In this document: positions 6,357-25,101 of the stretch, one piece after another
Numbering within the stretch: position 1 is the stretch's first letter
Layout: each line of letters starts with the position of its first letter
DNA from: Candidatus Iainarchaeum sp.
Lineage (GTDB): Archaea > Iainarchaeota > Iainarchaeia > Iainarchaeales > CSSED10-239
Reading direction: 5' to 3'
DNA length: 32,000 nucleotides
Assembly: GCA_003559395.1 (NCBI GenBank)
Contig: PWLL01000008.1
Span: forward strand, 1-32,000
Notes under the pieces: model-generated
The model's database searches: none
Seen by the model: only the letters and a program-made list of their open reading frames with translations
Told to the model about the DNA's origin: nothing
Made by a program: the position numbers and the translations under genes

Positions 6357-6374
6357 AAAACCAAATATACTCTT

Positions 6375-7050: not shown

Positions 7051-7081
7051 CGGTGCTCCTCCTTTCAATTCAGTAGATTTT

Positions 7082-7312: not shown

Positions 7313-7334
7313 CTCCTTTCTGTTAATTTGTTAT

Positions 7335-7363
7335 ATTATAGTATAAAAACACTATGAAGTCAA
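7335..7363 (-). promoter_or_regulatory. Near-consensus sigma-A/sigma-70 promoter driving the early (leftward) operon
   Basis: The minus strand reads TTGACT (7358-7363), a 17-nt spacer, then TATAAT (7335-7340). This is about 25 nt upstream of the SD of the XRE gene. Confidence 0.65.
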
Positions 7364-7440
7364 GGCTTTTTTTAACTAAATTAAATAATATATGGTTTAG
7401 ATCATGGTTTGTGTTAATCAGGATCGTATCATATGCTCCT

Positions 7441-7500
7441 AAAAGACAAAAGACAACCCCAAAAAACAAAAGATAACCCTAAAAGTCAAACAAAAAAACC
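7441..7500. repeat. Three tandem 20-nt A-tract repeats
   Basis: AAAAGACAAAAGACAACCCC / AAAAAACAAAAGATAACCCT / AAAAGTCAAACAAAAAAACC. Units 1 and 2 match at 17/20; units 1 and 3 match at 14/20. The A-runs recur at about 10-nt average phasing. Confidence 0.6.
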
Positions 7501-7522
7501 GCCAGTCATATAAACTGGCGGC
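7492..7522 (-). terminator. Rho-independent terminator ending the late operon
   Basis: The minus-strand RNA reads CCGCCAGU-UUAUAUG-ACUGGCGG, an 8-bp stem (7499-7506 / 7514-7521), followed by UUUUUUU (7492-7498). Confidence 0.8.
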
Positions 7523-7640
7523 CACAAATCAAAATATCCATTCTAAGGGGTCTGACAGACGATTTAAGAAGTGTTGGTATGATATACCAGGCCCCTACTA
7601 TAAAACTGCGATATTACCCCGGTTTTGTGGGCCGGTTTTA

Positions 7641-8447: not shown

Positions 8448-8462
8448 TAAACAAACCCTCCT

Positions 8463-8879
8463 TTAACGCAGATTACTAATTACCAATTGTATGATCCCCA
8501 GAACAACCATGCACGCCGACAATCCTATTCCCAACCATTTAGCGAGTTCTTTTTTGATTTCTTTTTCCATTTCGTTCATGTTTTTTATTGTATTGGCCTC
8601 TCTTTCCATCATAGTTGTATATATTTCTTTGAAACCTTTCTCCACCTTTTCCTTCAATCGATCATGAGCCGCCCAGGTAGAAAGTTTTTCTTTTTGTAGC
8701 GCCGACTTATGTAGCCCCGCTTTTATTTCTTTAATATCCGTTCTCATTTCTGCAATTATCTCGTCCAACAATTCGCGTCTTGTTTCGTCTTTTGCTCTCC
8801 ATTCTGAAATTGTTCTGATTATGCCATCCATTTGTTCTACAGTATTTTTTAGTTTGTTGTGTTCTGGACAGCGCTCCAA
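8463..8879 (-). CDS. Tail-anchored coiled-coil membrane protein; holin or lysis-accessory candidate by position
   Basis: TTG start with GGGGAGGG about 7 nt upstream. About 110 aa of charged helical sequence is followed by a single C-terminal TM (WLGIGLSACMVVLGIIQLVISNL). It lies immediately upstream of the endolysin. Confidence 0.5.
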   Translation of the reverse strand: MERCPEHNKLKNTVEQMDGIIRTISEWRAKDETRRELLDEIIAEMRTDIKEIKAGLHKSALQKEKLSTWAAHDRLKEKVEKGFKEIYTTMMEREANTIKNMNEMEKEIKKELAKWLGIGLSACMVVLGIIQLVISNLR

Positions 8880-8901
8880 TCATAACCCTCCCCAAGCATA
8901 A

Positions 8902-8948
8902 ACACTCCTGGGCTCCGGTTGGATCTGGTTATCGGAGCCCAGGAGTGT
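8902..8948 (-). promoter_or_regulatory. Perfect 16-bp inverted repeat (hairpin) between the giant gene and the lysis cassette
   Basis: ACACTCCTGGGCTCCG (8902-8917) and CGGAGCCCAGGAGTGT (8933-8948) are exact reverse complements around a 15-nt loop. The structure begins 3 nt after the stop codon (8951-8953). Only UUU follows on the minus-strand RNA, so it is not a classical terminator. Confidence 0.7.
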
Positions 8949-8950
8949 CT

Positions 8951-11900: not shown

Positions 11901-14900
11901 TCTTCTATCGGCTCGGAATCGGGTGGAAGCATCTTAACTATATTCAAATTATGTTTGGTTAAGTCTTGAAGTGTCGGGAGTGCTCTTTCTCCTACCGGAA
12001 CGAAGTATCTAGTATTGTACTGGATAATTTCACTGATTAACCCTGCGTCAAGAAGTTGCTGGCGGTTAGTTGTGAGATCCGGTCCAGCATCCTTCTTGAG
12101 TTCTATACGATAATCACCGGAGACAGTGCTTCTTTGTAATATCCAACTATTATCAAGCATAGCTTTCCAATTCTTATCAACAATTCTACTTGGTACTGTG
12201 CTAATATCGATCTCCTCTAAATCACGACTAGCACCGAGACGTTCAAGGACATTATCGATCTCTTTCTCACTTATAACTCTGCCGAGGATGGTTTCTCCCT
12301 CTTCGGTGAGAGCACGTTTAACTTCGATCTTGCTTGTAGGTAGTTTATCCCAGATATCAAGCAGGGCTCCGGTTATCATGTGAACTGTCTCTTCTTCATA
12401 CTCTGGTAGTTCAGCAACCTGTTCATCCCAAAGCTGACGCGCAACATCTTCTGCTGTCATATCAGGATCTGCTGGTTCTTTAATGGTGTTTTCATCTTCG
12501 TAGCGGGGGGAGAGGCCGGCTCTATCAATCCCCTTATTTATTGCCTCTTTTGTTTTCTCGATACCCAGACGCCTAACAGTATTCCTGGCATCTTCTATTG
12601 CTCGTAGTTCGTTGCTGCCATCTCCCAACTTAGCCCCTGATTTTCCTTCGGTAACTATATACGCCATCTGACCGGAACGGCCTGGATGAACGAAGGCGTC
12701 TATATCCTCAAATCCTTCAATCTCTACCTCTTTGCCATCCACGGCGACAAACTCTTTTCCATCATGTACGAAGTATACATCTTCTTCTACCGTTATTATC
12801 TCCCAGGTGCTCTCGCGAAACTGGTCTTTTTCAAGAGGTCTCCCTCGTCCGGGCCTCTGGTCGATTAAGCGTACCATCTCAACCACTTCACCAGACTTCT
12901 TGGTACGGGTGCCTGCTTCTACCGCAAGAACAATGTTTTTAGATCGTTGGTTTTGGAAGTAACCTATATGTCGTTCAAGAAAGGCGGGGCCTCCGTCTCG
13001 GAAGTCTGCACGAGTATGGTCGAATGTTATGGGATATACCTTATTCTTGACATTGAGCTTAATGTACCGAGTATCAGCAGCATCGTCTCTCTCTACTACG
13101 GATCGATCTTCGACAGCCTCGGTAATATCTGCGTGTAGGTTTTCAGTGCCCTTGTCTACTTCTCCGGCCTCTTCTGCTCGCCCATAGACCTCATTATGTT
13201 CTACCTCGAAGGCTTCAAAGACCTGGTTCTGTAAGTGTGGCTCTAACCCTAATATTCTGTTAAGGAATTTCTTGGTATCTCTCAGCTCATCAGTATCTTT
13301 AAGGTTGCCTTCATCTGTAAGAATGTCGTCTTTTATGCCCATTCTTTCTGATATAGTAGATAACCCTTCGTCAATAAACTCATACTCATCATTGGAAAGG
13401 TTAATATACATTTGCATCAGAGCATCTCTCGCAAAAGGACTGCTCAGATCGTCCTCATTATGGAACAATCCAGAACTCTCAGCCCCACGCTCCCCGCGCG
13501 ATAGTGCCCCAAACTCATTAAGACGTTGAGCAACGGTTGAGAGGAACCGTTTTTCACCTTTGAGGTTAGTAGTAACCAAAATGTATTCCGGAGGTTGTTT
13601 TTGGAATGAACGGTGAGTCCGTCCAAACCCCTGGAATACCTCTTTAACGTCCCAGCTTGGCTCTAAGAGATAATGTCTTCTTAATCTTTGGTTCTTGAAA
13701 TTTAAACCCGCATGATAGTCAACACCGGTATTGCCGATCTTGCTGAACAGCAGTATATGCTTTTCGTCGTCAAGAAAACGCCTAACCTCTTCCTGGACAT
13801 ACCCTGTTCCTCTGGTGTCTATATATTTGTTACCTTCCTCATCCTCCAAGACGCGTTCTTTGCGTCCTGTTATTTCAGAGACTCTATCTTTACCAAAAGA
13901 GTCTACCAACATATCAATCGGTGACTTAGGAAGCCTTACACCGCCCAGGTGAGCAAGCAATTCGTTCTTTAAGCGTACTGCTTCAGGGTCTTTCACCGTA
14001 TTGCCTTCGCTATCACGAACGGGTGTCCATACCGTTCTTGTCTTTCCGTCCTCTGTGGTAATTTTTACGGGTTCGTATTTCGTTGTCGGAAAGGCGCGTT
14101 CTACATAATCCATAATCATACTGGTTGGAGATACGTTAAAGTCCTGCAAAGACATATCAGGATCAGTACGGATACGCTGTAACTCTCTGCCCATAGAGGC
14201 TTCTCCTGTTTTATCTACCTGGATAACCGGAGCGTAACCCTGTTCTAAATCTTTCTCAATGCTCTCTATGAGAGTTGGCATTTTCATGGCTGTAAGCAGA
14301 TCGCTCCAAAATCGCTGGTAAGTACCGTAAAACTGTGATTTTGCGGCCCTTTTTGCCTGGGGTGATTCCCCCGCCCCTGTTGATTCCATAGCCGCGGACA
14401 TGTTTTGAAAGAGGATCTGCCACGCTTCAGCAGCCACGTTATACTGCTGTATTTGTTCTTCTGTCAGCCGGTGTTCTGTGTGGTCATATTCAATTCCTTC
14501 GTAGCTGATCTGTCGAGAAAGGTAAGCACCTTTTTGTTTGGAGTCGCGGGCAATAAGCTCCATACCGCCTAACCCGCTTGCGGATATCTGTTCAACGAAA
14601 TCCTCCATGCTGGCAAAAGGTGTTCCCTCGCCCCACAGGCCAAGGCGTTCAGCATAGGCAAGCGTTTCTGGGTCGTCAAATGCTGTAGCTGACGAATACT
14701 CTATTCGTGCTTCCGGGAAGGCCTCTTGTAATCGCAGACCGGCCATGGCCTGTAGGCTAGGTTCTTTCTCAATTCCAGAAGCGTTCTGCATCTTATGTGA
14801 TTCGTCAAAGACAATTACCCCGTCGAAATCATCGTCAAGCCATTCCATAAGCTGTTCTAAACGTGTTTGTTCCCCTTCGGGCACAATCCTTCGTGTTCCA

Positions 14901-17900
14901 TATCCATCACCGGCTGGCTCAACACTATATCCTCCGCGTATCATTGAATATGTTGTATAGAATATGCCATGATCAGGGTCCAGTTCATCGTTTTTGCTAT
15001 AATCATTCTGGGCATAAAGTATATCTTCTGACATATGTTCAGGATCGTGCTGGCCAACATCGCGTATATCCCTTTTGGCGGCCTCGTGCATATCACCCCA
15101 ACTGGCACTAATCCATACCGCTTTATCTCGACCCTGGCGGAGATTATCCAGTATTATAGCTGCTATAGTACGCCCCTTACCGGTACCTGTGCCATCACCG
15201 ATCATGTGTCCCTGCCTCACCCCAGAGGGGAGCATTTTCTGGTGAGATTGACCGGCATACACCACGGCTTCTAGCTGTGATTCGCTTATATCACCGGATT
15301 CTATTAGTTCTTTTGGCAAGTCTGGAGCATAGGTTATGTCTGGCGGTTCTGAGTCTGCCATAGCAGCCGTTTCCGATATCTGCGCCGGATGTTCCTTTGC
15401 TCCCTCTACCTTCAGTTTGGATGGCTTATACTTGCCTGTAAAAATATTATCGCTTAGTTTTCCTCTTCTCTCGTCCTCTCGCTGCTCGACTCTGAGAGTG
15501 CTATCAGTTCGGTCAGGCTCGTTACCCGATTCGAGCTTATCAGGATCGCCAGGTCCTCTAACAGCCGGATGGCGGCTTCCCTTGGGTTTTGGTCTTGCAT
15601 CATCCTGAGAAGGTCCCGTCGGTTCCCCAGGTCGAGGTGCTTCAACAGGAGGTTCAACCTCTGGGACGGGCTCATCAGGTCTAACATCTGGAACGTCTCG
15701 GACAGGTTCATCTCTCTCATCCCCAGGGCGAACGGCCACGTCGGGCCGGGTCTCAGGTTCATCCCGAGGTGGAGCAGGTTCACCAGGTACAGTTCGGATA
15801 CCGGGTCGCTCTTCGGATGGTAATCTATCAGGTTCTTCTGGTACGCCTGGTTCAGGATCTGGAGGGCTAACTGGTTCTCTGGGATCAGGTTCAACTGATA
15901 TATGTTTGCGATCTTCTTTCACTCCCCTCAACATGGGCACGGCCTGTCGTACATCTTTGACCTGCCCCGTTACTGGTGTTTCTGTAGTTGGACCATCCTT
16001 ATCAATAACGACAAGCTGAACACCAAAAGAAGTTCCGTATTTACGATACTCGCTGCCGTCTATCCCTATATTAGCCCTAACATTGTACCTTTCCTGTATA
16101 TCCTCCCACCATTCTCTGTGCGCGGGTTTATCAAGTGCCATCCCTTCACCCAGGATAGCTACCAACCTGCCATCATCACGAAGGAGTTTAAGAGCTTCCT
16201 CCATATGGCTTCGAACATTACGGGTATCTCTAACGCCCTCTAATCTACCTGCAGTCGACGAAAACGGGGGGTTCATAACCACAAGGGAAGGCGGTTCTAT
16301 TTTATCATGAAGTATTGCGTGTAAGTGCTCTGCATTTTCAGTATACACCGCATCGAATCCCATTTCACGCAATATATTAGCGCGGCGGTCGGATAATTCG
16401 TTGACCATAACCTGCTGGACTTGCATGCCCTTTGGGAAAACAGCCAGCCCGCCGATTCCTGCACTGGGTTCTAATACTATATCCTGCTTCATTATAGAGG
16501 CTGCCCAGTTAGCCAGGTAAGCAATGTTCGGCGGAGTAGAGAACTGCTGGAACTCTACACCCTCACCGGTGCGTTTGGTTTGAGTAGGAATCTTATCTAA
16601 AATATCTTCCTGGATTCGATTCAAGACTTTTACTGCATGGGTATAATCTATATTCCTGTGTGTTGGAAACCTGCCTGGGTGTGAAAGTATATATTTATTA
16701 ATACCTAGCTCCATAGCATCATAAGCGTCTTTAGGGGTATATACTCCTTCGGCCTGTGTTCCCTGGTAAGCGGTATCTGCTATAGCGAAAAGGTCACGCC
16801 AACTAAACGAACGGCCTTTTTCTAGCATATCATGAACACGACCAGCAATATCTGTTTCTGGTAAGCGAGCTTTTGCTTTAGTGGGGTCTGTTGTTGGTTC
16901 ATCGTCAGGCTTAATACGCAAGTCCTCTATAGCTGGCCTGCCGGTAGCTTCTTGTGTGAGTACAAACCGCTGTGCATCTTCGAGTGAACGGTGGTGTCCT
17001 ATAACCTGTAACGGTCTCTTGAAATCATCCCCTGGGGTTTCGGCACGCAACCGGAAAGGTGTATCTGCTATCTTAGTGTCAGTGGTATCTCTATCCCTTA
17101 CATCAACTATACTCCAGGGGGTGCCTGGCAGAGTCCATATTTTGCCACCGAGAACAGGATCAGGAACCTCTGTCCATTCTTCTGTGTCGGCTGGTTCTTC
17201 TGGTTCGAAAGCATCCTTAAAGCGCTCTCTTAATTCTTCTAATTGCCGTTTTTCATCTAAACTAGCCACCCTATCCGCTCTCAGCTTTTCGTCAAGAGCT
17301 TCCATGATCATATCGGCTTGATCAAAAAGCCCCTGGCGAAGAAGTTGCTCGTTCAGTTCTTGCATACTGCCAATATTTAAAAGAGCATCTGTCTCTGGTA
17401 CGTCTGCAAGTTGTGGATCTCTAGTTACATCTACACTCTGCATAATCCTCTCGTGTTCTGCTTCGCTATCTATACGAAGATCCTTAAACCGTTCAAATTC
17501 CTGCGGGGTAATGTGCTTTAAAACCTCTGTGCGGAATTCTTCCGGGTCCTGCATTTCGTACATGGCTGTTCCTTCAAGCAGATCGATTATTACACTGGCA
17601 TCACCATAAAGCCATATAAGTTTTTCGCCGGTCCACTTAATAGCTTCGTAATCATCTTCCAATACCTCTGATAGTACCCAGCGGTTAAGCGGAAGAGATA
17701 CATCCGGTGCATGATCGCCAGTAAGCGGGAATTCCGTCATAACAGGTTTAGGACCGGGAACGATTTCAGATACAGACGCAACAGTGGGTTCCTCTTCTTC
17801 CACCGGAGCTTCTTCTACCATAGTCAACCTGCCAGGACTAACACTTTCAACCCTTTCAACAGGACGACCAGCAACCATCGATATCTGGTCAACATGAACG

Positions 17901-19897
17901 CTAACCATAGTACCTAAACCCTCATAATCAATAACACTTCTTACGGTACCAGTCAACTCTTCTCCTTCTGGAGTGGTCCATGATACGCGGTCTTCTCGTT
18001 TGAATGTAGGTGCTTCAACAGGTTCTTCCGGGGGTATCTCTTCTAACCGTTGTTCCAGATCGTCTATCATCTGGTAATCCCTCTGAACAGCTCCTACCCC
18101 ACCAATCACAGGCGTTCCTGCTGCTTCTGCTTGTTCTGCCTGTTGAAGTTTTTCTTCAAGGCGTTGTTTAATTTGTCCTATATCTTCTGGAGTTAAATCT
18201 TCCAGAGGCTTATCTACTGATATGGTATGGAATGGTGAATCCTCAACCACTTCAGGAGGTTCTACCGTGGGAGCGTCAGGCATAGGTGCAGAAGGTGTTT
18301 CTACAGTAAGACCTTGCGGCCCCTCAACTATACGGAAAGGCCCTGTCGGTCCTGTTGATATGGCCGGAGTAGGTATTTCCATAGTAGTCGGGATAGTAGG
18401 TTGTACCTGTTGCGGCATATCAGGAGCAGTCGGTACCCCATAAGGCGCCGCTTGAGTAGCCGGCGGCGATATCTCCATACTGGGATCCGGTGTGGTTCCT
18501 GCGGGCCAGGCGAATTGAGTTCTTTGTACCTCTTGTTGTACCCCTTGATCTACCTGCTGGGTTGCCACTTGTTTGGCCTGTGGTGACATATCGCTGCTCT
18601 GGATCATATTATAGGCGGTGTCCCTTGCTATCTGAAGTTCTTTAAACTTTTCAGGATCTCCACTGGGCACATCAGGGTGTAATGTTTTTGCAATATGCCT
18701 ATAGGCACTCTTTATCTGATCCCGTGTTGCCGTCTCTGGCAGTCCCAGTACAGAAAAGGCTCTACTTCTTATCTCCTGCTCCCTTACTACATCACTGCGG
18801 GTGGCTTCTGCTTCCTGTCTTAACCTTTCACGGTAAGCGTTTAGCTTGCGTTCTATGGTCTCAGCATCATCCCCAGGACTTATACCAGCATCCGCAAATA
18901 TCTTTTTCCGGTTATCGCGGGCTGCATGGAATGTTTTATGTACCCGGTTAATCTCTGCCTTATCCTGCGGAGATAGTGCTGCTGTGTTTACCAGTCCGAG
19001 AATAGTAAGGCCAACCACAGAGGAACCCATATCCATAAGATCCAAAGGTTCTCTTTCGTCTGGGGGAGTTAATGCCCTTCTTGTTACCTCAGAAGCGGTT
19101 ACTCCTGCCGGTGCAGAAATTAAGGATCTGGTCAGGCTTTGCGCATATGGATATAACTGATCCGGTACGCTTGTAGGAAGTTCTTGCGCTAATCGCCCGG
19201 CGTAAGGAGCAACAGCACCCATCGCACCACCAAAAGCCAATGAGCTTGCGAAGTCTGCTGCGGTAGGCCGGTGTTCTTCGGGCATACCTTCAAGTTCCAT
19301 TCCTCGTATGCCAGCGAAACGAGCAGCTCCACGGGCCGCACCACTCAATGCCTCGGGCGTCTGTGCTGCTCTAAGCGCAAGTTCAGGAGCATACCTCGCT
19401 CCTGCATACCCCAGGGCCTGTGTTCCGGCCTGGGTAAAAGGTCCCATAAGCTTTAATCGTCCCAACCAACCGGCGGTTGATCCCAGGGTGTGCATGGTCT
19501 GATCGATTCTTTCATCACCAGTTGTAGAATAAGTACCCTGGCGCCTTTCTACTACTCCCGGCTGCATACCATAACTCTCCTGCCAGGCTTCCGAGAACCG
19601 GCTGAGAGCTGCATCTACACCAGGAGCCACCCTTCCTACCCATGTATCTTCATCAGTAAGAAACCTGGTTACAGGTTGTTTAATCTTTTCTATCTCCTGC
19701 ATCAGCAGAGGATTGTGTCCTACCCAGTCTATGGCCCGTTGATATGGAGTAGAAGGTGTGAACCCCGTATCTTCTGCCCACGATGCAATCGCGGCCCCGG
19801 GTGTTTGTGGGGCCGTAGCTTGCGGGTCCTGAGCTTGTGGGCTGGTGGGGGTAGGTTGTTGTTCTTGCCATATATTTGCAAACGGGTTAGTTGCCAT
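8951..19897 (-). CDS. Giant (3648 aa) multidomain polyvalent protein; putative ejected internal virion protein (T7 gp16 position)
   Basis: Uninterrupted 10,947-nt ORF. GGAGG lies 8 nt upstream of the ATG, inside the end of the preceding gene. Motifs read directly:
- TM-like SSVVGLTILGLVNTAAL (aa 291-308)
- J-domain HPD (aa 407-409)
- EPSAGIGG (aa 1143-1150) and NPPF (aa 1209-1212)
- GDGTGTGKGR (K1574)
- DESH (aa 1698-1701)
- GRTHRS (aa 2092-2097)
- HEVAH (aa 2733-2737)
- hydrophobic helix YWISMLISMLAAINIA (about aa 3365-3385). Confidence 0.9.
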   Translation of the reverse strand: MATNPFANIWQEQQPTPTSPQAQDPQATAPQTPGAAIASWAEDTGFTPSTPYQRAIDWVGHNPLLMQEIEKIKQPVTRFLTDEDTWVGRVAPGVDAALSRFSEAWQESYGMQPGVVERRQGTYSTTGDERIDQTMHTLGSTAGWLGRLKLMGPFTQAGTQALGYAGARYAPELALRAAQTPEALSGAARGAARFAGIRGMELEGMPEEHRPTAADFASSLAFGGAMGAVAPYAGRLAQELPTSVPDQLYPYAQSLTRSLISAPAGVTASEVTRRALTPPDEREPLDLMDMGSSVVGLTILGLVNTAALSPQDKAEINRVHKTFHAARDNRKKIFADAGISPGDDAETIERKLNAYRERLRQEAEATRSDVVREQEIRSRAFSVLGLPETATRDQIKSAYRHIAKTLHPDVPSGDPEKFKELQIARDTAYNMIQSSDMSPQAKQVATQQVDQGVQQEVQRTQFAWPAGTTPDPSMEISPPATQAAPYGVPTAPDMPQQVQPTIPTTMEIPTPAISTGPTGPFRIVEGPQGLTVETPSAPMPDAPTVEPPEVVEDSPFHTISVDKPLEDLTPEDIGQIKQRLEEKLQQAEQAEAAGTPVIGGVGAVQRDYQMIDDLEQRLEEIPPEEPVEAPTFKREDRVSWTTPEGEELTGTVRSVIDYEGLGTMVSVHVDQISMVAGRPVERVESVSPGRLTMVEEAPVEEEEPTVASVSEIVPGPKPVMTEFPLTGDHAPDVSLPLNRWVLSEVLEDDYEAIKWTGEKLIWLYGDASVIIDLLEGTAMYEMQDPEEFRTEVLKHITPQEFERFKDLRIDSEAEHERIMQSVDVTRDPQLADVPETDALLNIGSMQELNEQLLRQGLFDQADMIMEALDEKLRADRVASLDEKRQLEELRERFKDAFEPEEPADTEEWTEVPDPVLGGKIWTLPGTPWSIVDVRDRDTTDTKIADTPFRLRAETPGDDFKRPLQVIGHHRSLEDAQRFVLTQEATGRPAIEDLRIKPDDEPTTDPTKAKARLPETDIAGRVHDMLEKGRSFSWRDLFAIADTAYQGTQAEGVYTPKDAYDAMELGINKYILSHPGRFPTHRNIDYTHAVKVLNRIQEDILDKIPTQTKRTGEGVEFQQFSTPPNIAYLANWAASIMKQDIVLEPSAGIGGLAVFPKGMQVQQVMVNELSDRRANILREMGFDAVYTENAEHLHAILHDKIEPPSLVVMNPPFSSTAGRLEGVRDTRNVRSHMEEALKLLRDDGRLVAILGEGMALDKPAHREWWEDIQERYNVRANIGIDGSEYRKYGTSFGVQLVVIDKDGPTTETPVTGQVKDVRQAVPMLRGVKEDRKHISVEPDPREPVSPPDPEPGVPEEPDRLPSEERPGIRTVPGEPAPPRDEPETRPDVAVRPGDERDEPVRDVPDVRPDEPVPEVEPPVEAPRPGEPTGPSQDDARPKPKGSRHPAVRGPGDPDKLESGNEPDRTDSTLRVEQREDERRGKLSDNIFTGKYKPSKLKVEGAKEHPAQISETAAMADSEPPDITYAPDLPKELIESGDISESQLEAVVYAGQSHQKMLPSGVRQGHMIGDGTGTGKGRTIAAIILDNLRQGRDKAVWISASWGDMHEAAKRDIRDVGQHDPEHMSEDILYAQNDYSKNDELDPDHGIFYTTYSMIRGGYSVEPAGDGYGTRRIVPEGEQTRLEQLMEWLDDDFDGVIVFDESHKMQNASGIEKEPSLQAMAGLRLQEAFPEARIEYSSATAFDDPETLAYAERLGLWGEGTPFASMEDFVEQISASGLGGMELIARDSKQKGAYLSRQISYEGIEYDHTEHRLTEEQIQQYNVAAEAWQILFQNMSAAMESTGAGESPQAKRAAKSQFYGTYQRFWSDLLTAMKMPTLIESIEKDLEQGYAPVIQVDKTGEASMGRELQRIRTDPDMSLQDFNVSPTSMIMDYVERAFPTTKYEPVKITTEDGKTRTVWTPVRDSEGNTVKDPEAVRLKNELLAHLGGVRLPKSPIDMLVDSFGKDRVSEITGRKERVLEDEEGNKYIDTRGTGYVQEEVRRFLDDEKHILLFSKIGNTGVDYHAGLNFKNQRLRRHYLLEPSWDVKEVFQGFGRTHRSFQKQPPEYILVTTNLKGEKRFLSTVAQRLNEFGALSRGERGAESSGLFHNEDDLSSPFARDALMQMYINLSNDEYEFIDEGLSTISERMGIKDDILTDEGNLKDTDELRDTKKFLNRILGLEPHLQNQVFEAFEVEHNEVYGRAEEAGEVDKGTENLHADITEAVEDRSVVERDDAADTRYIKLNVKNKVYPITFDHTRADFRDGGPAFLERHIGYFQNQRSKNIVLAVEAGTRTKKSGEVVEMVRLIDQRPGRGRPLEKDQFRESTWEIITVEEDVYFVHDGKEFVAVDGKEVEIEGFEDIDAFVHPGRSGQMAYIVTEGKSGAKLGDGSNELRAIEDARNTVRRLGIEKTKEAINKGIDRAGLSPRYEDENTIKEPADPDMTAEDVARQLWDEQVAELPEYEEETVHMITGALLDIWDKLPTSKIEVKRALTEEGETILGRVISEKEIDNVLERLGASRDLEEIDISTVPSRIVDKNWKAMLDNSWILQRSTVSGDYRIELKKDAGPDLTTNRQQLLDAGLISEIIQYNTRYFVPVGERALPTLQDLTKHNLNIVKMLPPDSEPIEEMYRIEERLDIDPVPDEFMVEVFSLAAELAAPARYTGLRTKAAARFTDIGGDERIETRDVTNLETLGHEVAHVIDYRINNNQYPSSIKERFPDLEVGEMELREQLKAVAKQVRPPEEGELDRYRNKHTELMADFYTMYLLNTEMARNLAPDVAQGLDMQIRQNPDLHQKIQDIIQKRHEMKRKIDVSAIRPIEEVERLLPSEYLTDDYKDNVKTIIKSWSRLFRLRQIEAGYRKIDWSARFTEEQLEDMGAAVEEVKNIRTGKTAEEIQEELTPEMRQALAEYRYFQEKARQDLNRFMREVVGDEEYVTYLEDYLLHFYENKPKRIKEFAYRWTKRVPSAMQRTIPTLEDAVEAGLVPRTQNIAELHYLWHELNWKGALNRAFVHELTKIANDEGEPIIQKSNQAPPHWPLVDHPAINKYYARQARDGTTILWEGKAAVDPEAYKITKQVFEQPFHWKPLQIIEAFNAYAKGLSLKLSGFHFWNLTESAQAALAKITQPLRGFFTVGEEVKEVDESAVIRRTHQLGLDLISGSPEALRDAIMHGVVFDPIPDAHMRRINQDLRKLEAHTRKIPGAGSLVRKMRQANEWYDRKLWNEYYAGLKAITYYEWAKEALSDQKVNAKDASPQKIREIKEEVARMVNDAFGGQEWESHFWATPRVRQAMKLLWLSPDYTYTNMRIFGRTLYENLPFKKNKDPVVRKFGARYWISMLISMLAAINIANRALTGRWAWENEPGRRTDIDVTPIIHAARKIIGTYDPDDERRYYAAPGKQAREILRYFDDPITYLFGSKFSPVVRTALEQTTGTQAGPGGWPMPWREGDMPFYQEMDERVRAVYEKFVPFSLRGNNFAFTMPMRRGMGWWQAQKGYEDLWRARVDPSWWQRTYQQIAPGSQLLRLKQQLDEAAVLNGLDPAEQEKQAVSKLRTEYYGNLWNAVDRGDREEAEHYANILIQLGVDATGAQRSGEARPYVTDESVQRALMLFAE
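11528..11830 (-). other. Zincin-like HExxH metallopeptidase motif region inside the giant protein, aa about 2690-2790
   Basis: LETLGHEVAHVIDY (HEVAH at nt 11687-11701), with a candidate third ligand about 55 aa downstream in KHTELMADFY. The family could not be assigned by eye. Confidence 0.5.
13508..15280 (-). other. Strawberry-notch (Sbno)/DarB-like DExH helicase core inside the giant protein, aa about 1540-2130
   Basis: P-loop GDGTGTGKGR (nt 15170-15199), DESH box in VFDESHKMQN (nt 14795-14806), SSAT, and helicase-C block ILLFSKIGNTGVDYH...FQGFGRTHRSFQ (GRTHRS from nt 13624). A conserved-looking C-terminal extension (HMITGALLDIWDKLP...EGETILGRVI, aa about 2505-2541) carries the unit to about nt 12218. 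Confidence 0.75.
15455..15893 (-). other. Pro/Glu/Asp/Arg-rich low-complexity linker of about 145 aa between the MTase and helicase domains
   Basis: EPDPREPVSPPDPEPGVPEEPDRLPSEERPG...RDEPVRDVPDVRPDEPVPEVEPPVEAPRPGEP. A second Pro/Gln-rich linker follows the J-domain (aa about 434-560). Confidence 0.75.
15992..16543 (-). other. Gamma-class N6-adenine DNA methyltransferase domain inside the giant protein, aa about 1119-1302
   Basis: FSTPP..., motif I VLEPSAGIGG (nt 16448-16471), and motif IV NPPF (nt 16262-16273) 59 aa downstream. The motif I before motif IV order is that of gamma-class amino-MTases. Confidence 0.8.
18599..18760 (-). other. J-domain (DnaJ/Hsp40 N-terminal domain) inside the giant protein, aa about 380-433
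   Basis: AFSVLGLPETATRDQIKSAYRHIAKTLHPDVPSGDPEKFKELQIARDTAYNMIQ matches the helix II - HPD - helix III pattern of canonical J-domains (compare YEILGV...A....IKKAYRKLA.KYHPD......AEEKFKEI.EAYEVL). HPD codons are at nt 18671-18679. Confidence 0.8.
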
Positions 19898-19900
19898 CTT

Positions 19901-22222
19901 TTAACCTCCAATTACACTATATATATCATCGAAGGTGACCCCTGGGGGTAACGCTTCCTCGAATTCATCTCTTATTGCCGGCGAGATAGCTTCCAGGTAA
20001 TAAAGTAGCTCTTCGATATCGTTCAATGTACCATCCCTAACCAAGACTGTTTCCAGGTTAGACGCAATCATATCAGCAGCGAAACCTTCCTGCCCTGCTA
20101 CCTGCGGGACTATATTCGGCAGTATGCTTCTTACATAACTGGCTATCTCTCTATCAGCATCAGGATCGCCTTGCGCCTGGAACGTGAGATCATCATCCAG
20201 TGCCGCTTCTGCGGGTTCCTCAACCGGTGTCATATCTTCTGCCTGCTCGGTTGGTTGCGGAGCCATACCAGGTTCTGGAGTTGGTACCTCTCCAGGTTCG
20301 GTAATCTCTTCCGTTCCCAGAGCTTCGTCAACCAGGTCTACCTGAGGCAATCTATCTTCATAACCTACTGGCCGTTCAAAGGCTTCTTCATGAGTAGGTA
20401 TACCGCGAGTTTCTTGTGGTGGACCGGCTAATGTCGTTGTCGGTCTATCCACCGGGGTAGGCCCTGCTTCTGGCTGAAGGTCCATACCCATTACAGCATC
20501 AACATCGCGTTGTTCTCTTTGTCCTAAGCTCGGATCCTCATCATAAATAGCCGCAAGTATTTCATCAAACGGCACCTGATATGCTTCTTCTGTGGACTGT
20601 TTCTGTGCTTCTGACAGGCCCTCAAGTATGCGGATAACATCGTTTAGTGTGGCGTCCTGATATTGAGTGGTTACCGCAGTAATAATATCATCTACCGCAT
20701 AGGATACGTCCCCTTGATATTCTTCTGGTGCTGCCGGAAGTGGTGTTGCCTCTTCAGGTACCGTCTCTACATCTGGCACGACCTCTTCCTCTGTTATCTC
20801 AGGGGTCAGTCCAGGCATATCTAAAGCCGGATCCGGTTCAAATTCGGGATCCAGTTCAGGAGATACGGCCATTGGGTCTACCTCCGGCTGTGGCTGTGGG
20901 GTAGCTTCGGGAGTTATACCGTATCTTCTAAGGGCATCACCAACCTGCCCGAAATGCTGTCCGGCGCCACCACCCCAGAGTCTTCCCAGCCACGAACCCT
21001 GCTCTTCCCCGACCATCTCTTCGGGAACAGGGGTACCATCTTCATAGACAGGTCCATACTCGGCATGGTTCCAGTACGGGAGCCCGGAAATATCTACTCC
21101 ATCGCCCTCGGGATTCCAGCCAACAAGCTCTTGCAGTTCTTCTGGTGCAAGTACCGGCTGGGCCAGTGGATCTATCATCCCTTCTAGGTACCCGGGATGA
21201 ATCCAGTTACCTTCTTGATCGGAGTGCCATACGTTTCCATCTTCATCTTGATATCTGAATATAGGGCCAAACTGTGGGTGGTCTGTCCCTGTATATACGC
21301 CATCCGCTGGTGGTGGTGCTAATGTCATGGGTTGCGGTCCGAAATCGCCACCAAAAGCTCCCCACTGGTCCTGCGGTGCAAAACCCATACCCATAGTACC
21401 CTGCATGTTTTCATTAATAGTCCGTTCTCTTTCATTTAAAATGTTCTGTAGTTCTACTTGTGCGTTAATAAGATTTGCATTGGCCTGGTCAATAGCTGAC
21501 TGACTAACTCCAGCAGAGATCAGATTGTCACGTTCGACTTCCATAAGGTTAATGTTTTTTTTCATCATATCTGTTTCTAATTCAAGGTGGTTAAGACGAT
21601 GTTGCTGTTCAGCTGGCATTATATTATCGAGATAATATCTATGCTCTCTAAGTCCCAGATCAATTTCTTCTACCTGTCTATCATAAAGCTCCCGATTATG
21701 TGCGTTTAAATCAGCCGCCTGTCTTACATCTAATGACGCTAGTTGATTGTGTAACCGCTGTTGCGCCTGCAATAATGGGCTCATATCCTGAAAGTGTTGT
21801 GTTTCGGCTGCTATCCCCTGTGCTGTGGCGTCCTGCACTCCGGTCAGGGAACGGGTATAATCTGCCTCTGCACCCAGTCCCTCCTGCCGTGCCAGACTTT
21901 CTCCGGTAACCAGCGGAGCATCGACAACACTATGACCGAAAAACTGTTGAAAATAAGCGGGATTAAATGCCTGCTCACCAAACATACCAGGGTCTACATC
22001 AATTCCTGCCCCGGATATCATCTGCTGAACCGGAATATCTTCAAATCCAGTTAAATAACGTGCTTCTTCTTCTAACATTCTATTCCTTAAATCTGCTTCC
22101 TGTAGTGCGCGTTCCGCAAGCTCCTGATCGTCTCTAAATGTTTGCAACTGCATATAACGTCCAAAAGGATCCGCTTGCGCTAATCCGCTTGCGAATCCTC
22201 CAACGCCTGCTCTATAAGGCAT
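19901..22222 (-). CDS. Putative internal virion protein (T7 gp15-like by size and position), 773 aa
   Basis: GGGAGG SD. Gln-rich coiled-coil N-terminal third, very acidic Pro-rich C-terminal half. Its stop is 3 nt from the start of the giant gene. The function call rests on synteny only. Confidence 0.6.
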   Translation of the reverse strand: MPYRAGVGGFASGLAQADPFGRYMQLQTFRDDQELAERALQEADLRNRMLEEEARYLTGFEDIPVQQMISGAGIDVDPGMFGEQAFNPAYFQQFFGHSVVDAPLVTGESLARQEGLGAEADYTRSLTGVQDATAQGIAAETQHFQDMSPLLQAQQRLHNQLASLDVRQAADLNAHNRELYDRQVEEIDLGLREHRYYLDNIMPAEQQHRLNHLELETDMMKKNINLMEVERDNLISAGVSQSAIDQANANLINAQVELQNILNERERTINENMQGTMGMGFAPQDQWGAFGGDFGPQPMTLAPPPADGVYTGTDHPQFGPIFRYQDEDGNVWHSDQEGNWIHPGYLEGMIDPLAQPVLAPEELQELVGWNPEGDGVDISGLPYWNHAEYGPVYEDGTPVPEEMVGEEQGSWLGRLWGGGAGQHFGQVGDALRRYGITPEATPQPQPEVDPMAVSPELDPEFEPDPALDMPGLTPEITEEEVVPDVETVPEEATPLPAAPEEYQGDVSYAVDDIITAVTTQYQDATLNDVIRILEGLSEAQKQSTEEAYQVPFDEILAAIYDEDPSLGQREQRDVDAVMGMDLQPEAGPTPVDRPTTTLAGPPQETRGIPTHEEAFERPVGYEDRLPQVDLVDEALGTEEITEPGEVPTPEPGMAPQPTEQAEDMTPVEEPAEAALDDDLTFQAQGDPDADREIASYVRSILPNIVPQVAGQEGFAADMIASNLETVLVRDGTLNDIEELLYYLEAISPAIRDEFEEALPPGVTFDDIYSVIGG

Positions 22223-22239
22223 TTTCTAACCTCCCTCTA

Positions 22240-22782
22240 TTAGCTCTGCCACGGCCAACCGTGTTCAGAAAAATAATCGATAGCATACGGTGCCGCGGTT
22301 CCTACAGCTTGCCCTATTCCTTGCCACATCTGTCCACTACGCTGCGCATCCATATCCTGTGCGCGTAAAGCTCTGTCCGCTAGTGCTGATTGTCTCTGAA
22401 AATCCTGCTGTTGAAGTCCTGTCGCATATTGCGCCAGGTTGGCCTGGTGCTGCATGGACAGATCACCGGCAGTAGACCTCCTCAAAGCGGCAGCCGGTAG
22501 TTGTCCGAAAAAACCTCTCTGCATGCTTTGGTGGTCTATGTTAGATAGTGTTTGATCCATAGTCCGCTGAAAACCCGGATCTAACGCCTGTTGCGCCCGT
22601 TGATAAGCATCATCCCAGGGGAGTTGTTCTACCTCCTGCTCTTGCGGTTGCTGTGTTGCCTGCGTATCGCTGCTACTACCACCAAATGCCCGCTCTAATA
22701 GGCCGCCCCCTATAGTACCTATAACGCCACCAACAGGGCCGCCTAAAGCTGTGCCTAAAGCCCCTCCGACGGTCTTGAACAT
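22240..22782 (-). CDS. Glycine-zipper membrane-active small virion protein (T7 gp14-like by size and position)
   Basis: The ATG at 22782 follows AAAGGAGG by 9 nt; the ORF-track start at 22791 is a TTG. N-terminus FKTVGGALGTALGGPVGGVIGTIGGGLL is a glycine zipper. The rest is Gln-rich. Confidence 0.6.
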   Translation of the reverse strand: MFKTVGGALGTALGGPVGGVIGTIGGGLLERAFGGSSSDTQATQQPQEQEVEQLPWDDAYQRAQQALDPGFQRTMDQTLSNIDHQSMQRGFFGQLPAAALRRSTAGDLSMQHQANLAQYATGLQQQDFQRQSALADRALRAQDMDAQRSGQMWQGIGQAVGTAAPYAIDYFSEHGWPWQS

Positions 22783-22813
22783 AATATACAACCTCCTTTA
22801 TCCATGGTTCGCT

Positions 22814-23209
22814 TTAAACTATAATACCCTCTGCGTTCACCCAATCGGTACCGTCATACCATATCGGTAGACCTAAGTCGGTGTCGAAATACATCTGATA
22901 ATCACGGGGTTCGGATGGTCTTTCTGCTGTGGGTCCACCGTTTCTCGTTTCTTCTTCAATTATGGCGTCAACTTCATCCTGGGTATAATAATCTTGAAGT
23001 GTGTTGTTTATTTTCTGTTGCGCTCCCTGTGGCGTCTCCGCACCAATATCCCCAGGGTAAACTCTATCGATCCCTCCTGCTGCATGAGACCGTCTGTGAC
23101 GCGGAACTTCCGTATCTTCTATTGAAGCTCTTATGATCTCCGAGAGCTGATCAGAGATCCTCTTATCACCCGACCGGGTTACAATGCGCGGATCGCTTTT
23201 GTTGCTCAT
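22814..23209 (-). CDS. Hypothetical virion protein (131 aa) with C-terminal YFDTDLGLPIWYDGTDWVNAEG motif
   Basis: ATGA overlap with the upstream gene. From memory, the C-terminal motif resembles one seen on phage fibre and depolymerase proteins. Confidence 0.55.
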   Translation of the reverse strand: MSNKSDPRIVTRSGDKRISDQLSEIIRASIEDTEVPRHRRSHAAGGIDRVYPGDIGAETPQGAQQKINNTLQDYYTQDEVDAIIEEETRNGGPTAERPSEPRDYQMYFDTDLGLPIWYDGTDWVNAEGIIV

Positions 23210-25101
23210 ACTGTATCACCCATTTGTTGAACCAAGTTATAATCCAGGGCTATTCCATACAGTGTAGGCATGTTATGCATTCCGGTTACCGGTACTGGAG
23301 AATCTTCGTGCTCCTCTATAACTACTTCAAATCTACTGCCTACAGCATAAGTTTGAAGTCGCGCAGTATAAAGTCGTGCACCACCAGAACCAATCACTAC
23401 CTCTTTAGATTCAACCTCTTCATCATCCGCATATAAAGTAACAATAATCTTATACCCGTCAATGAAAGGGTTCTCCATCGCAACGTATATCCTGCTAACC
23501 TTTTTCTTTCTGAAAGGGTGTCCGAAATGGTATCGCGGAGAACGAATCTTCCATCTGGCCGGATCGTATTCAGGATCTCCTTCTGAGTCTAAACCCTGTT
23601 CAAAAACAATCATATTATTGTCGCTGGCAGCTAAAATATCACCGTTTAAGGTATAGCAAAAATCATTAATATGTATATCAGGGTATAAGGTAAATGAACC
23701 GAGATTGAAATCAAAAACCAGAACATTGTTATTTATACCAGTATCATCATCACAATACGACAGTAAATATCGCTCATGCTTACTATCGAACACCCCGGTT
23801 GCCTGTTCAGGATAAGTAATCTCTTTGATAATACTGGAGACCCTGTTCTTTGCAATATTGTTTATATAATTCTCTCTGGCCTCCATCGCCATAGATACAC
23901 CAATTATATTCGGCGACAGAGCATAAAGACCACCAGGGCCAAACATGGTAATAGAGCTGGTTGTAAGGTGTATCGTATTACTCGATAGTGTCCCTTCTGA
24001 AGTGGGTAGTTTCTCCCAGACAGCATCAATTTCTGGATCTATACCCCTCCAAGACCAGATCGAGTTCTTATAAAAAACTAAAACCGCGTCCATAAAGACC
24101 GCGAGGCCGGTTACTGGTCCATCTGCAGTCGTTGGATACAATACCGAGGTTTCTCTTATAGCTGGCGGATCATTAGGTTCACTGAAATAAAGCGCTGATT
24201 CGTTACCTTCTGCGCCGGCATAAAACATTCTAAAGCTCTTCGGATGGCGTACTGCAAACTTACACGTTTCAACGGGGTGCTCCTCATATTCAAATTGCTC
24301 ATCAGGATCTGTATCAACAAATGGCTCCTCTATATCCGGCTCGTTATAAAACTTATGTTCAATAGGGTCGGTAATCGTATCATAGTCAGGATGTGGTATA
24401 ACATCATGGAAGAGTTGATAGAACTCTTCACCATCAGCTAAAGTCATAAATGGCAGTACCCTCTGATAGTTAGGGTTGGGCATGATCCAGTCTACTCTAT
24501 AACTATCTGGAGGAGCCTCTACCTCTGCAACAGGCGAAGCCTGAGAAATGATCTCTCCTTCTTTAGTGACATAAACATATAAACATTTGTAGGTCCCTGA
24601 CGAAAAGGCGCCGCCACCAATTATCGTTTGAAATTCTACTACTGGAGCTTCCGGTGGTGCTGGTAGAGTATGTCTATCGTAAAAGAGTGTTACCTCCTCA
24701 ACCGTATCACCATCGTATACATACATCTGTTCTTCACCAATAAAGTATAACTTGTCTTGTAGAAAGAAGTATGCAATTCGGTCGTAACCAACGGCATGTA
24801 GCGGTTCAGATTCTTCGGTTTCGAATATATATTCCATTAAGGTTTGATCCGCTACAAAAAGCAGGGATGAAGTACCATCATCCCTCTGCCATTCAAACAC
24901 CTGTGTAATTTTTTCATAGAATCCCTCTTCAAAGAGGACCTGGCTGCTTTTTCTTTTCCTAAGACCGCCGCGTTTACTAAGTTCCACGTTCTCTGCAATC
25001 TGTAGTTCACTGCGATCTAAGTGATCAGGGCTGGCGTCTACGTTAAGGCCACCGGTATAGTTATAATCAACGTGTTGTATCACTCTGCTGGGATCAGGCA
25101 T
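23206..25101 (-). CDS. Putative tail tubular protein B / nozzle (T7 gp12-like), 631 aa
   Basis: N-terminus YTGGLNVDASPDHLDRSELQIAENVELSKRGGLRKRK parallels my recollection of T7 gp12 (LKGGISQQPDILRYPDQGSRQVNGW...GLQKRPP). Its size and its position after a 176-aa protein fit. The similarity was judged by eye only. Confidence 0.5.
   Translation of the reverse strand: MPDPSRVIQHVDYNYTGGLNVDASPDHLDRSELQIAENVELSKRGGLRKRKSSQVLFEEGFYEKITQVFEWQRDDGTSSLLFVADQTLMEYIFETEESEPLHAVGYDRIAYFFLQDKLYFIGEEQMYVYDGDTVEEVTLFYDRHTLPAPPEAPVVEFQTIIGGGAFSSGTYKCLYVYVTKEGEIISQASPVAEVEAPPDSYRVDWIMPNPNYQRVLPFMTLADGEEFYQLFHDVIPHPDYDTITDPIEHKFYNEPDIEEPFVDTDPDEQFEYEEHPVETCKFAVRHPKSFRMFYAGAEGNESALYFSEPNDPPAIRETSVLYPTTADGPVTGLAVFMDAVLVFYKNSIWSWRGIDPEIDAVWEKLPTSEGTLSSNTIHLTTSSITMFGPGGLYALSPNIIGVSMAMEARENYINNIAKNRVSSIIKEITYPEQATGVFDSKHERYLLSYCDDDTGINNNVLVFDFNLGSFTLYPDIHINDFCYTLNGDILAASDNNMIVFEQGLDSEGDPEYDPARWKIRSPRYHFGHPFRKKKVSRIYVAMENPFIDGYKIIVTLYADDEEVESKEVVIGSGGARLYTARLQTYAVGSRFEVVIEEHEDSPVPVTGMHNMPTLYGIALDYNLVQQMGDTV

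Follow-up and report, generated by a model that had tools for sequence, protein, structure and literature searches.

How very large internal proteins pass through the narrow tail channel of a phage, and which energy source drives their passage, is largely unexplained, N4 virion RNA polymerase (vRNAP), DarB and phi24B gp47 being cases in point. This question is raised anew by a giant open reading frame (ORF) in a 32,000-nt stretch of contig PWLL01000008.1 (assembly GCA_003559395.1; the whole stretch is hereafter termed the window). A sequence-only reading of the window had proposed that the 3648-aa product of this ORF is a putatively ejected protein carrying a J-domain shortly after a transmembrane-like helix, through which host DnaK could be recruited at the entry site. 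To our knowledge, a J-domain has essentially one biochemical job, namely switching on Hsp70 beside a substrate. In this study, the J-domain itself is confirmed by sequence comparison and is observed at a fixed position in four divergent members of a family of giant phage proteins. It is tentatively proposed, with chances rated somewhat short of even, that the domain would act at entry as a membrane-proximal, cis-acting recruiter of host DnaK.

The giant ORF extends uninterrupted over 10,947 nt of the minus strand and its translation contains the J-domain peptide; translation of 18599-18760 on the plus strand yields nonsense with a stop, the feature thus being located on the minus strand. An identical 3648-aa protein (P0007) is present in the representative protein library that was searched. 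The ORF and the elements of its N-terminal part are as follows.

8951..19897, minus strand: giant ORF, a phage polyvalent protein by ORF and domain content, last gene of the late block before the lysis genes.
19868..19888, minus strand: aromatic/acidic N-terminal motif NPFANIW (aa 4-10), identified by eye; relatives have comparable, often duplicated motifs.
18968..19525, minus strand: Gly/Ala-rich hydrophobic N-module (aa ~125-310) with GxxxG-like motifs, identified by BLASTP to relatives P0041 (E 1e-16) and P0106 (E 1e-13).
18974..19030, minus strand: most hydrophobic segment (aa 290-308), MGSSVVGLTILGLVNTAAL, a candidate membrane anchor (Kyte-Doolittle value 1.58; flank charges -4 upstream and +1 downstream).
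18764..18973, minus strand: basic helical spacer (aa 309-378) between hydrophobic segment and J-domain (AlphaFold2 (AF2) helices at aa 310-336 and 345-384, predicted local distance difference test score (pLDDT) 87-96).
18596..18763, minus strand: J-domain (aa 379-434), identified by Pfam DnaJ, J-domain matches in the PDB, a 15-sequence alignment and AF2 secondary structure.
18671..18679, minus strand: HPD tripeptide (aa 407-409), in columns invariant in the alignment with canonical J-domains.
18218..18595, minus strand: low-complexity linker rich in P, T, Q and A (aa 435-560; P24, T16 and Q14 among 126 residues), with aa 439-462 helical in the model.

The J-domain stretch of the ORF reads RAFSVLGLPETATRDQIKSAYRHIAKTLHPDVPSGDPEKFKELQIARDTAYNMIQ, in which F381 to I432/Q433 correspond to nt 18599-18757 and the HPD is the only one among the 3648 aa. 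The Pfam DnaJ profile (PF00226, gathering cut-off 27.8 bits) matched the whole protein with 38.4 bits (E 1.3e-9) and a 97-aa excerpt with 44.7 bits (E 1.4e-11), the match spanning profile positions 3-51 of 63. A phmmer search against PDB sequences returned 41 chains at E<=0.01, all of them named as J-domain or DnaJ-family proteins and headed by the Sis1 J-domain (E 1.3e-7), while an exhaustive phmmer search of 1.8 billion proteins yielded 493 matches at E<=1e-3, the best match being located at aa ~380-430 for nearly all of the 150 matches listed. When aligned with 15 bacterial DnaJ/CbpA J-domains, the columns L, G, A, I, A, R, A, HPD, E, F, K and A are invariant. Additionally, the basic face of helix II (K396, Y399, R400, H401 and K404) and the start of helix III (F418-K419-E420) are kept. 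Residues K396, Y399, R400, HPD 407-409 and F418-K419-E420 correspond to R22, Y25, K26, H33-D35 and F47-E49 of Escherichia coli DnaJ, while the equivalent of DnaJ R19 is D393; the functional roles of these helix II and III residues are known from the DnaJ-DnaK complex. The domain departs from the canonical form in that the loop from HPD to helix III is 3-4 aa shorter than in bacterial DnaJ (3 aa relative to E. coli DnaJ), helix III carries a 4-aa insertion (IARD) and the canonical helix IV motif KRxxYD is absent. Based on these comparisons, which exceed chance by far, the segment qualifies as a true class-C (type III) J-domain, an assignment for which the sequence test is decisive, and the placement of a J-domain with intact HPD at aa ~380-433 by the sequence-only reading is upheld by the Pfam score above cut-off and the PDB matches.

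With regard to the four-helix J fold, an AF2 model of aa 251-470 (mean pLDDT 77) places helix I, helix II, the HPD loop and helix III in J-domain order, helix I forming the end of a 40-residue helix (aa 345-384), followed by helix II (aa 392-406), helix III (aa 419-434) and a further helix (aa 439-462); pLDDT is 75-89 for helices II and III, with HPD in the loop between them. However, the canonical helix IV motif is lacking and a Foldseek search with this 220-aa model ranked J-domains first but at non-significant values (Sis1, E 0.4, TM-score 0.32).

To place the protein among its relatives, its C-terminal 1088 aa were used as a query and identified P0004 (46% identity), P0005 (45%) and P0006 (29%). 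Exhaustive searches further identified P0041, homologous at both ends (E 1e-16 and 3e-91), and P0106, homologous in the N-terminal part and the region of an HExxH motif. An alignment of five C-terminal regions (A1), with invariant residues H, E, H, D ... E, A, D, was used to collect relatives, of which 177 were found in IMG/VR, 159 in metagenomes and nine in genomes. The family ORFs range from ~1100 to >4200 aa and their neighbourhood is phage-like in all loci where it is visible. A large, previously unannotated and so far uncharacterised family of giant late phage proteins is thereby defined, with >300 loci, >60 contigs from gut-type samples and, as its hallmark, HExxH plus a ~900-aa helical C-terminal region. 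Among these loci, L024-L083 and L087-L091 comprise >60 near-identical IMG/VR contigs together with contigs binned to metagenome-assembled genomes (MAGs) of Segatella copri and Oribacterium, with ORFs of >4200 aa that bear the family C-terminal domain. Word-indexed searches with aa 1-500 and with an N-terminal alignment (A2) returned ordinary DnaJ/CbpA proteins only, and for the N-terminal 500-720 aa word-indexed and exhaustive searches gave no close relatives other than J-domain matches.

The occurrence of the J-domain across the family was assessed with a hidden Markov model (HMM) built from 165 phmmer-hit sequences and used in a six-frame scan of ORFs of at least 60-100 aa in all loci (170). 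Besides the window, only three members among the ~170 loci carry the domain: P0041 (locus L093; 2438 aa, Pfam DnaJ 36.8 bits, VHPDV), the protein of L108 (~1220 aa, 55 bits with the custom J-domain HMM, AHPDA) and that of L002/L084 (2776-aa ORF, Pfam DnaJ 31.0 bits at aa 349-398, FHPEG). L002 is a Gemmatimonadales MAG contig (CBDFJJ010000009.1), while L108 is part of a 39-kb metagenome contig with ERF and YqaJ recombination genes downstream. In P0106 (L095:201-6647) a segment is alignable but degenerate, reading NLHQLDE with an insertion, the HPD having been lost and no Pfam match being obtained. An in-frame stop upstream, indicative of a complete N-terminus, is present for 56 family ORFs, of which ~45-50 are distinct once duplicates and short or split ORFs are removed; this census covers N-termini other than those of L096-L100 and P0005 (45-47% identity) and of the gut cluster (>4200 aa). 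More than 40 of these ~45-50 members have no J-domain. The J-domain as a family-wide feature is thus ruled out by the HMM scans, and its presence in only ~4 of 50 members indicates that it is no general requirement for ejection; given this sporadic distribution, the J-domain is an accessory improvement and not core to ejection.

Where the domain is present, its surroundings are constant. All four carriers display the same order of acidic flank, hydrophobic segment, basic flank, helical spacer, J-domain and Pro-rich or disordered linker, the spacer between hydrophobic segment and J-domain measuring 72 aa in the window and 26-43 aa in P0041, L108 and L002. P/A/T linkers equivalent to that of the window follow the J-domain in L002 and L108, and the cargo after the linker differs from one carrier to the next.

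Window: methyltransferase and Strawberry-notch helicase.
P0041: HHH_3.
L002: GGDEF, Eco57I-like methyltransferase and SNF2.
L108: none.

The recurrence of this arrangement in three divergent relatives implies that the juxtaposition of hydrophobic segment and J-domain is no accident of one sequence, and the retention of the J-domain by L108, which lacks enzymatic cargo, ties the domain to the scaffold of N-module and C-terminal domain and not to one enzyme. Furthermore, an HPD-to-helix III loop shortened by 3 aa is common to all carriers, which suggests a common origin of their J-domains. Within the N-terminal 460 aa, conservation is highest in the J region, with 37-39% identity to P0041 and L002 as against 22-26% in the flanks, and 25% identity to P0106. 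As regards L002, its giant gene looks split, since the tail of the 2776-aa ORF (1491-9821) appears frameshifted and the family C-terminal domain is found as a separate 1013-aa ORF (10001-13042) 180 nt further on; its GGDEF diguanylate-cyclase domain, located after the J-like domain, is an unusual cargo for an injected protein.

A sporadic distribution (~4 of 50 members) would also agree with a decaying or purely structural helical module, i.e. a leftover of domain shuffling that serves as a spacer without interacting with Hsp70. The HPE of L002, the lost motif of P0106, the missing helix IV, the altered helix III and the non-significant Foldseek match all fit such a module. However, the window, P0041 and L108 have all kept the HPD and the KFK/Y-R signature, although the remainder of their N-terminal part is only ~25% identical; the J region is better conserved than any other stretch of the N-terminus, and in three proteins the Pfam scores lie above the curated cut-off. 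Decay is therefore a plausible reading for P0106 and possibly for L002, while as an account of the domain at large it is improbable.

The second element of the arrangement, the hydrophobic segment, was more equivocal. Residues 290-308 form the top Kyte-Doolittle peak of the whole protein (mean 1.58 over 19 aa) and end 72 aa before F381, while the AF2 helix at this position (aa 291-302) is only 12 residues long with a pLDDT of 54-77, such that a transmembrane helix is borderline. The segment aligns with the hydrophobic segments of P0041, P0106, L002 and L108; the equivalent segments of the relatives have Kyte-Doolittle values of 1.12-1.53, that of P0041 contains an Arg, and that of L108 is a convincing one, followed by KKWWKNQITGRK. 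The net charges of the upstream and downstream flanks in the four carriers are -4/+1 (window), -2/+1, -1/+2 and -2/+6. In P0106, the relative with the degenerate J motif, they are -4/-2, the basic downstream flank having been lost. By the positive-inside tendency, this charge bias alone would place the J-domain on the cytoplasmic side. Of the earlier proposal that the J-domain follows a transmembrane-like helix by about 70 aa, the distance therefore stands (72 aa) and the placement recurs in three relatives, whereas the transmembrane character of the helix is borderline.

The HPD loop of a J-domain triggers ATP hydrolysis by Hsp70, thereby clamping Hsp70 onto a nearby unfolded or hydrophobic peptide. 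The arrangement described above suggests that phages with J-domain carriers enlist host DnaK for the giant protein, a DnaK recruiter that acts in cis and close to the membrane being its simplest interpretation. In the order of events that we propose, the giant protein would be taken up into the phage head and would leave it before, or together with, the DNA. Its Gly/Ala-rich N-module would then engage the host cytoplasmic membrane, the last hydrophobic segment lying with its acidic side out and its basic side in, and the J-domain would thereby be positioned at the cytoplasmic face, where its HPD loop would trigger ATP hydrolysis by host DnaK. DnaK would thereby be clamped in cis onto the unfolded P/T/Q linker next to the J-domain and onto the polypeptide beyond it, and in this manner inward movement would be biased and aggregation prevented during refolding of ~3200 aa of cargo, protecting the methyltransferase, the Strawberry-notch helicase, the zincin-like region and the C-terminal domain. 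Action at entry is favoured because the charge asymmetry fits an outside-to-inside insertion which leaves the J-domain in the cytoplasm, because the next 130 residues would be an ideal unfolded Hsp70 substrate, because a post-delivery role is assumed for the other domains of such proteins, and because the cargo-free L108 ties the J-domain to the scaffold and not to one enzyme. A broader proposal may be derived from this, in which a subset of phage ejection (polyvalent) proteins has its own membrane-proximal J-domain and DnaK would act on a tail-threaded protein of up to ~400 kDa both as an ATP-driven import ratchet and as a refolding machine, possibly aiding the first stage of genome entry; in this full form, the proposal is rather unlikely.

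The same arrangement may equally be read as that of a chaperone aid in the producer cell, which constitutes the main rival. In that case the J-domain would act late in the preceding infection and load DnaK in cis onto the N-module and linker of the newly made 400-kDa protein until packaging, so that the membrane-active N-module stays soluble and the chain remains fit to be packaged. The J-domain is indeed flanked by sites of the type bound by DnaK (a hydrophobic stretch with basic residues, then an unfolded linker), the cargo-free L108 still pairs a hydrophobic module with a J-domain, and most relatives do without the domain, as expected for a folding aid. Moreover, jumbo phages encode stand-alone DnaJ-domain proteins, for which a role in folding and assembly through recruitment of host Hsp70 has been predicted (PMC7824862). 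On the other hand, the acidic-out, basic-in asymmetry would have no obvious purpose if the segment never inserts, and the other domains of polyvalent proteins are thought, in the main text of Iyer et al. 2017 (PMC5512222), to act post-injection. Chaperoning in the producer cell as the principal role is considered unlikely, if not markedly so, and the two models are not mutually exclusive.

Several observations weigh against DnaK recruitment at entry. More than 40 family members have no J-domain, so the family ejects and folds without it, and L023 contains the same Strawberry-notch cargo as the window in a protein devoid of a J-domain. Among those with the domain or its remnant, L002 has HPE in place of HPD and P0106 has lost the motif, while the structural match of the window's domain was non-significant, its transmembrane helix is borderline and the segment of P0041 is interrupted by an Arg. 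No cultured relative is available, tblastn searches of 50,697 GenBank phage records with three regions of the giant ORF and with the L108 protein having returned no match. Finally, either end of such a protein could leave the capsid first, and the same arrangement suits a role before packaging equally well.

The proposal that DnaK is recruited at entry presupposes that the giant protein is delivered with the DNA, for which its remaining domains and its genomic position are informative. The domains downstream of the linker are listed below.

15968..16597, minus strand: N6-adenine DNA methyltransferase-like domain (aa ~1101-1310), identified by PHROG 9133 (E 5e-20) and PHROG 6263 'DNA methyltransferase' (E 3e-13).
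14438..15394, minus strand: Strawberry-notch-type P-loop ATPase (AAA_34; aa 1502-1820), identified by Pfam PF13872 (E 3.4e-101).
13142..13921, minus strand: Strawberry-notch C-terminal helicase domain (Helicase_C_4; aa 1993-2252), identified by Pfam PF13871 (E 7.2e-69).
11501..11701, minus strand: gluzincin-like motif HEVAH (aa 2733-2737) with ELMAD (aa 2794-2798), in which H, E, H, D and E..AD are invariant in five family members.
8954..11950, minus strand: family-defining C-terminal region (aa 2650-3648), mostly alpha-helical, with 46-29% identity to P0004, P0005, P0006 and P0041.

The methyltransferase-like domain retains motif I (EPSAGIGG, aa 1143-1150) and motif IV (NPPF, aa 1209-1212), a second proline-rich low-complexity linker is located at aa 1330-1480, and the helical C-terminal part (~2800-3648) has one hydrophobic helix (aa 3372-3390, nt 9728-9784). 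J-domain, methyltransferase, AAA_34 with Helicase_C_4 and HExxH motif thus reside on one polypeptide, and this polyvalent architecture is directly observed. In the main text of Iyer et al. 2017 (PMC5512222), the pairing of a methyltransferase with a superfamily 2 (SF2) helicase is described as a hallmark of DarB-type polyvalent proteins, a few of which are noted there to have Strawberry-notch-like ATPases. A Pfam scan of the giant protein gave no LPD domain and no MPTase match, and its HExxH region matched the anthrax lethal factor zincin (ATLF) below threshold (17.5 bits, E 0.0035). PDB sequence and profile searches with the C-terminal domain and with aa 560-1499 gave no match. Similarly, tblastn with the N-terminal 700 aa, the helicase region and the C-terminal 1349 aa as queries, i.e. 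with regions other than the methyltransferase, found no match in the 50,697 GenBank phage records at E 1e-5, and blastn against the GenBank phages gave none either. P0106 differs in that it carries a different C-terminal region and a ddrB-ParB domain, the latter being phage-polyvalent-specific according to the same main text (Iyer et al. 2017, PMC5512222).

An AF2 model of the C-terminal region (pLDDT 61, predicted TM-score 0.52) gave nothing significant by Foldseek against the PDB. Against BFVD, 14 entries were matched at E<=1e-3, most of them chunks of LPD-annotated phage proteins; the LPD matches range from E 1.5e-14 to 1e-4 with TM-scores of 0.2-0.3 and derive from a model of pLDDT 61. Much weaker BFVD matches comprise internal virion proteins and tape-measure proteins, the latter at E 0.02-0.4. 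A tape-measure protein was rejected as an identity for the giant ORF owing to its globular enzyme domains and its location after the tail-fibre genes, just before lysis. From the analysis as a whole, the giant ORF encodes a polyvalent protein that is presumably packaged and ejected. The earlier premise of a putatively ejected protein is accordingly a reasonable one in view of the methyltransferase-helicase pair, the last late-gene slot, the LPD38 protein in the equivalent position of Pagevirus and the LPD matches in BFVD.

Some further features of the polypeptide may be recorded here. The family N-termini bear short acidic-aromatic motifs, often duplicated, which were seen in the window, P0041, P0106, P0006, L002:1491- and L108:8714- and could represent a packaging or docking signal; NIWDLSEYT, DNLFDINRYS, ISEEEFFAP and FxEEDFxP each occur twice, while the window has NPFANIW. 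The region of aa 623-697 (window 17807-18031, minus strand) is a small domain, FKREDRVSWTTPEGEELTGTVRSV..., 51% identical to a stand-alone 102-aa protein (P0093); by eye it resembles an SH3/Tudor-like beta domain, and the Pfam scan gave no match for it. The HEVAH...(56 aa)...ELMAD pair resembles a gluzincin active site and may correspond to the self-processing peptidase proposed for polyvalent proteins.

Such a peptidase is relevant to a further explanation, in which a fragment comprising N-module and J-domain, released by proteolysis (perhaps by the protein's own HExxH domain), would be an injected takeover effector that redirects or sequesters DnaK and thereby alters heat-shock regulation or supports phage replication in the manner of Rki. 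Precedents exist for its parts, since Rki is an early phage J-domain protein which binds DnaK via its J-domain and stabilises sigma32 (PMC3486835), and cleavage of polyvalent proteins into units by their own metallopeptidase has been proposed in the main text of Iyer et al. (PMC5512222); the HExxH...ExxAD motif is present in the giant protein and invariant among the five aligned family members. However, no similarity to Rki extends beyond the J-domain, a cis or local role is indicated by the fact that four lineages keep the J-domain tightly coupled to hydrophobic segment and linker, and control of sigma32 would be inapplicable if the host, as presumed, belongs to Bacillota. In addition, a 3648-aa protein would presumably be present in few copies per virion, far too few to titrate the thousands of DnaK molecules of a cell, which makes the DnaK titration and heat-shock remodelling put forward by the sequence-only reading unlikely. 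A takeover effector is, overall, quite an unlikely explanation.

The genomic position of the giant gene in a late operon is likewise directly observed. All genes of the window are located on the minus strand, along which tail- or virion-like genes, a 773-aa ORF, the giant gene, a holin-like gene and a glucosaminidase endolysin follow one another; after the endolysin come a helix-turn-helix (HTH) regulator and then SbcC-like, RecT, metallo-beta-lactamase, SSB and Dam genes. The giant gene is thus flanked by tail/virion genes on one side and by holin and endolysin on the other.

19901..25101, minus strand: upstream late genes, comprising the 773-aa ORF (no match), a 183-aa ORF, a 131-aa virion structural protein and a 631-aa protein.
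8463..8879, minus strand: small holin-like protein whose C-terminal part contains a hydrophobic helix, encoded immediately downstream of the giant ORF; presumed holin, its position matching that of the holins of Pagevirus Pony.
7641..8447, minus strand: endolysin (N-acetylglucosaminidase), identified by Pfam Glucosaminidase (E 1e-34) and PHROG endolysin families.

The 631-aa protein is weakly related to the Pony virion structural protein gp15 and to internal-virion-protein PHROGs. A homologue of the 183-aa ORF (22240-22791) is found two genes upstream of the giant gene of P0041 (L093), the gene between the two being a 569-aa ORF in that locus and the 773-aa ORF in the window. Furthermore, the order of giant gene, one or two small ORFs and an endolysin or lysozyme gene is shared by the window, L002 and L093, and the recombination genes of the window share 33-44% identity with their counterparts in Aeribacillus phage AP45 and Bacillus megaterium podophages (Pagevirus). 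The source is therefore probably an uncultured tailed phage, specifically a podophage of a Bacillota host, synteny alone pointing to a podovirus. Elsewhere in the window, the endolysin has a ~115-aa C-terminal extension without a recognised cell-wall-binding domain. The region between endolysin and recombination genes (6332-7641) is gene-poor and AT-richer, holds a Cro/CI-like HTH ORF (7082-7312) and a Cys-rich zinc-ribbon-like ORF (6648-6893), and is probably the early/late regulatory switch region. At the right end, an ORF running off the window (~31093-32000, minus strand) consists of tandem ~23-aa repeats (LTSLTIPDSVTTIGDxAFxxNS) of BspA-type leucine-rich-like character and may encode a receptor-binding or tail protein; a 182-aa ORF (31093-31641) is in frame with the repeats, and 31601-31998 is stop-free.

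Taken together, support for the sequence-only reading is partial: anatomy and conservation make a stronger case than its author was in a position to know, and the function, packaging and topology that it envisaged would follow from them by inference. How the giant protein relates to known systems is best considered element by element, beginning with its position. The 1679-aa gp20 of Pagevirus Pony is the largest late gene of that phage, contains Pfam LPD38 and is located directly before the holins and endolysin, i.e. in the same position before the lysis genes as the giant gene. Homology between the two was ruled out, as BLASTP (E>0.8) and hhalign (probability 0.3%) detected no sequence or profile similarity, and their equivalence is thus positional only; a Pfam scan of gp20 gave LPD38 only and no DnaJ domain. 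The 2811-aa LPD38-type gp47 of podophage phi24B has been found in virions by proteomics and is proposed as an ejection protein (2026 preprint), and it differs from the giant protein in that no DnaJ domain is among its reported domains. P1 DarB is, like the giant protein, a giant multidomain late protein with an N6-adenine methyltransferase, an SF2 ATPase and an HExxH region, and according to the main text of Iyer et al. 2017 it resides in the P1 head and protects incoming DNA in cis (PMC5512222). Unlike DarB, the giant protein has a helicase of the rarer Strawberry-notch type, and P1 is among the GenBank phages that yielded no sequence match. No mention of J-domain, DnaJ, Hsp70 or DnaK is made in that main text, the supplements being outside this scope.

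J-domains encoded by phages are known in another form. A J-domain query against the GenBank phages identified 43 records with J-domain genes, including Bacillus phages PBC2, Thrax1 and Kirov, Agrobacterium phage Atu_ph07 and cyanophages, whose J-domains are 40-50% identical to that of the giant protein over ~50 aa. These proteins of large phages are annotated as DnaJ/CbpA-like or hypothetical, and the two that were inspected are small stand-alone proteins and not parts of virion or polyvalent proteins. Two unannotated fecal phage contigs with J-domain matches were likewise set aside, as they encode small ordinary J-proteins. The characterised example, Rki (gene 057w) of the T4-like phage RB43, is a class-C J-domain protein which resembles DnaJ in its J-domain only and interacts with DnaK in an HPD-dependent manner (PMC3486835). 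It shares with the giant protein a phage-encoded class-C J-domain, but is a soluble, stand-alone, early protein of 237 aa with an N-terminal J-domain that acts on sigma32, whereas the J-domain of the giant protein is internal (aa 379-434), encoded in a late operon and located beside a hydrophobic segment.

It is in this last respect that the closest parallels are cellular. In E. coli DjlA, mitochondrial Pam18/Tim14 and Sec63 of the ER, the J-domain is held at the membrane by an adjacent hydrophobic segment and activates Hsp70 locally, Pam18 and Sec63 acting where an unfolded chain emerges from a channel. None of them is homologous to the giant protein outside the J-domain, and all are resident cell proteins that act in trans on many substrates, while the J-domain of the giant protein would arrive from outside and act in cis on the chain that carries it. 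DjlA is known to confer membrane localisation on DnaK (PMC3486835).

Full-text literature searches that combined the J-domain with polyvalent or ejection proteins returned nothing relevant. Stand-alone phage J-proteins, membrane-anchored J-proteins and polyvalent proteins are each known, and it is their combination, a J-domain with a membrane-like module in a polyvalent, presumably packaged protein, that appears to be new. Chaperone recruitment would be added to the functions carried by polyvalent proteins, and the J-domain, lying between a membrane-like module and a disordered linker, offers a concrete and mutable handle (HPD to QPD) on protein delivery. If the ratchet reading were true, it would represent the bacterial-virus counterpart of the Pam18-mtHsp70 and Sec63-BiP import motors.

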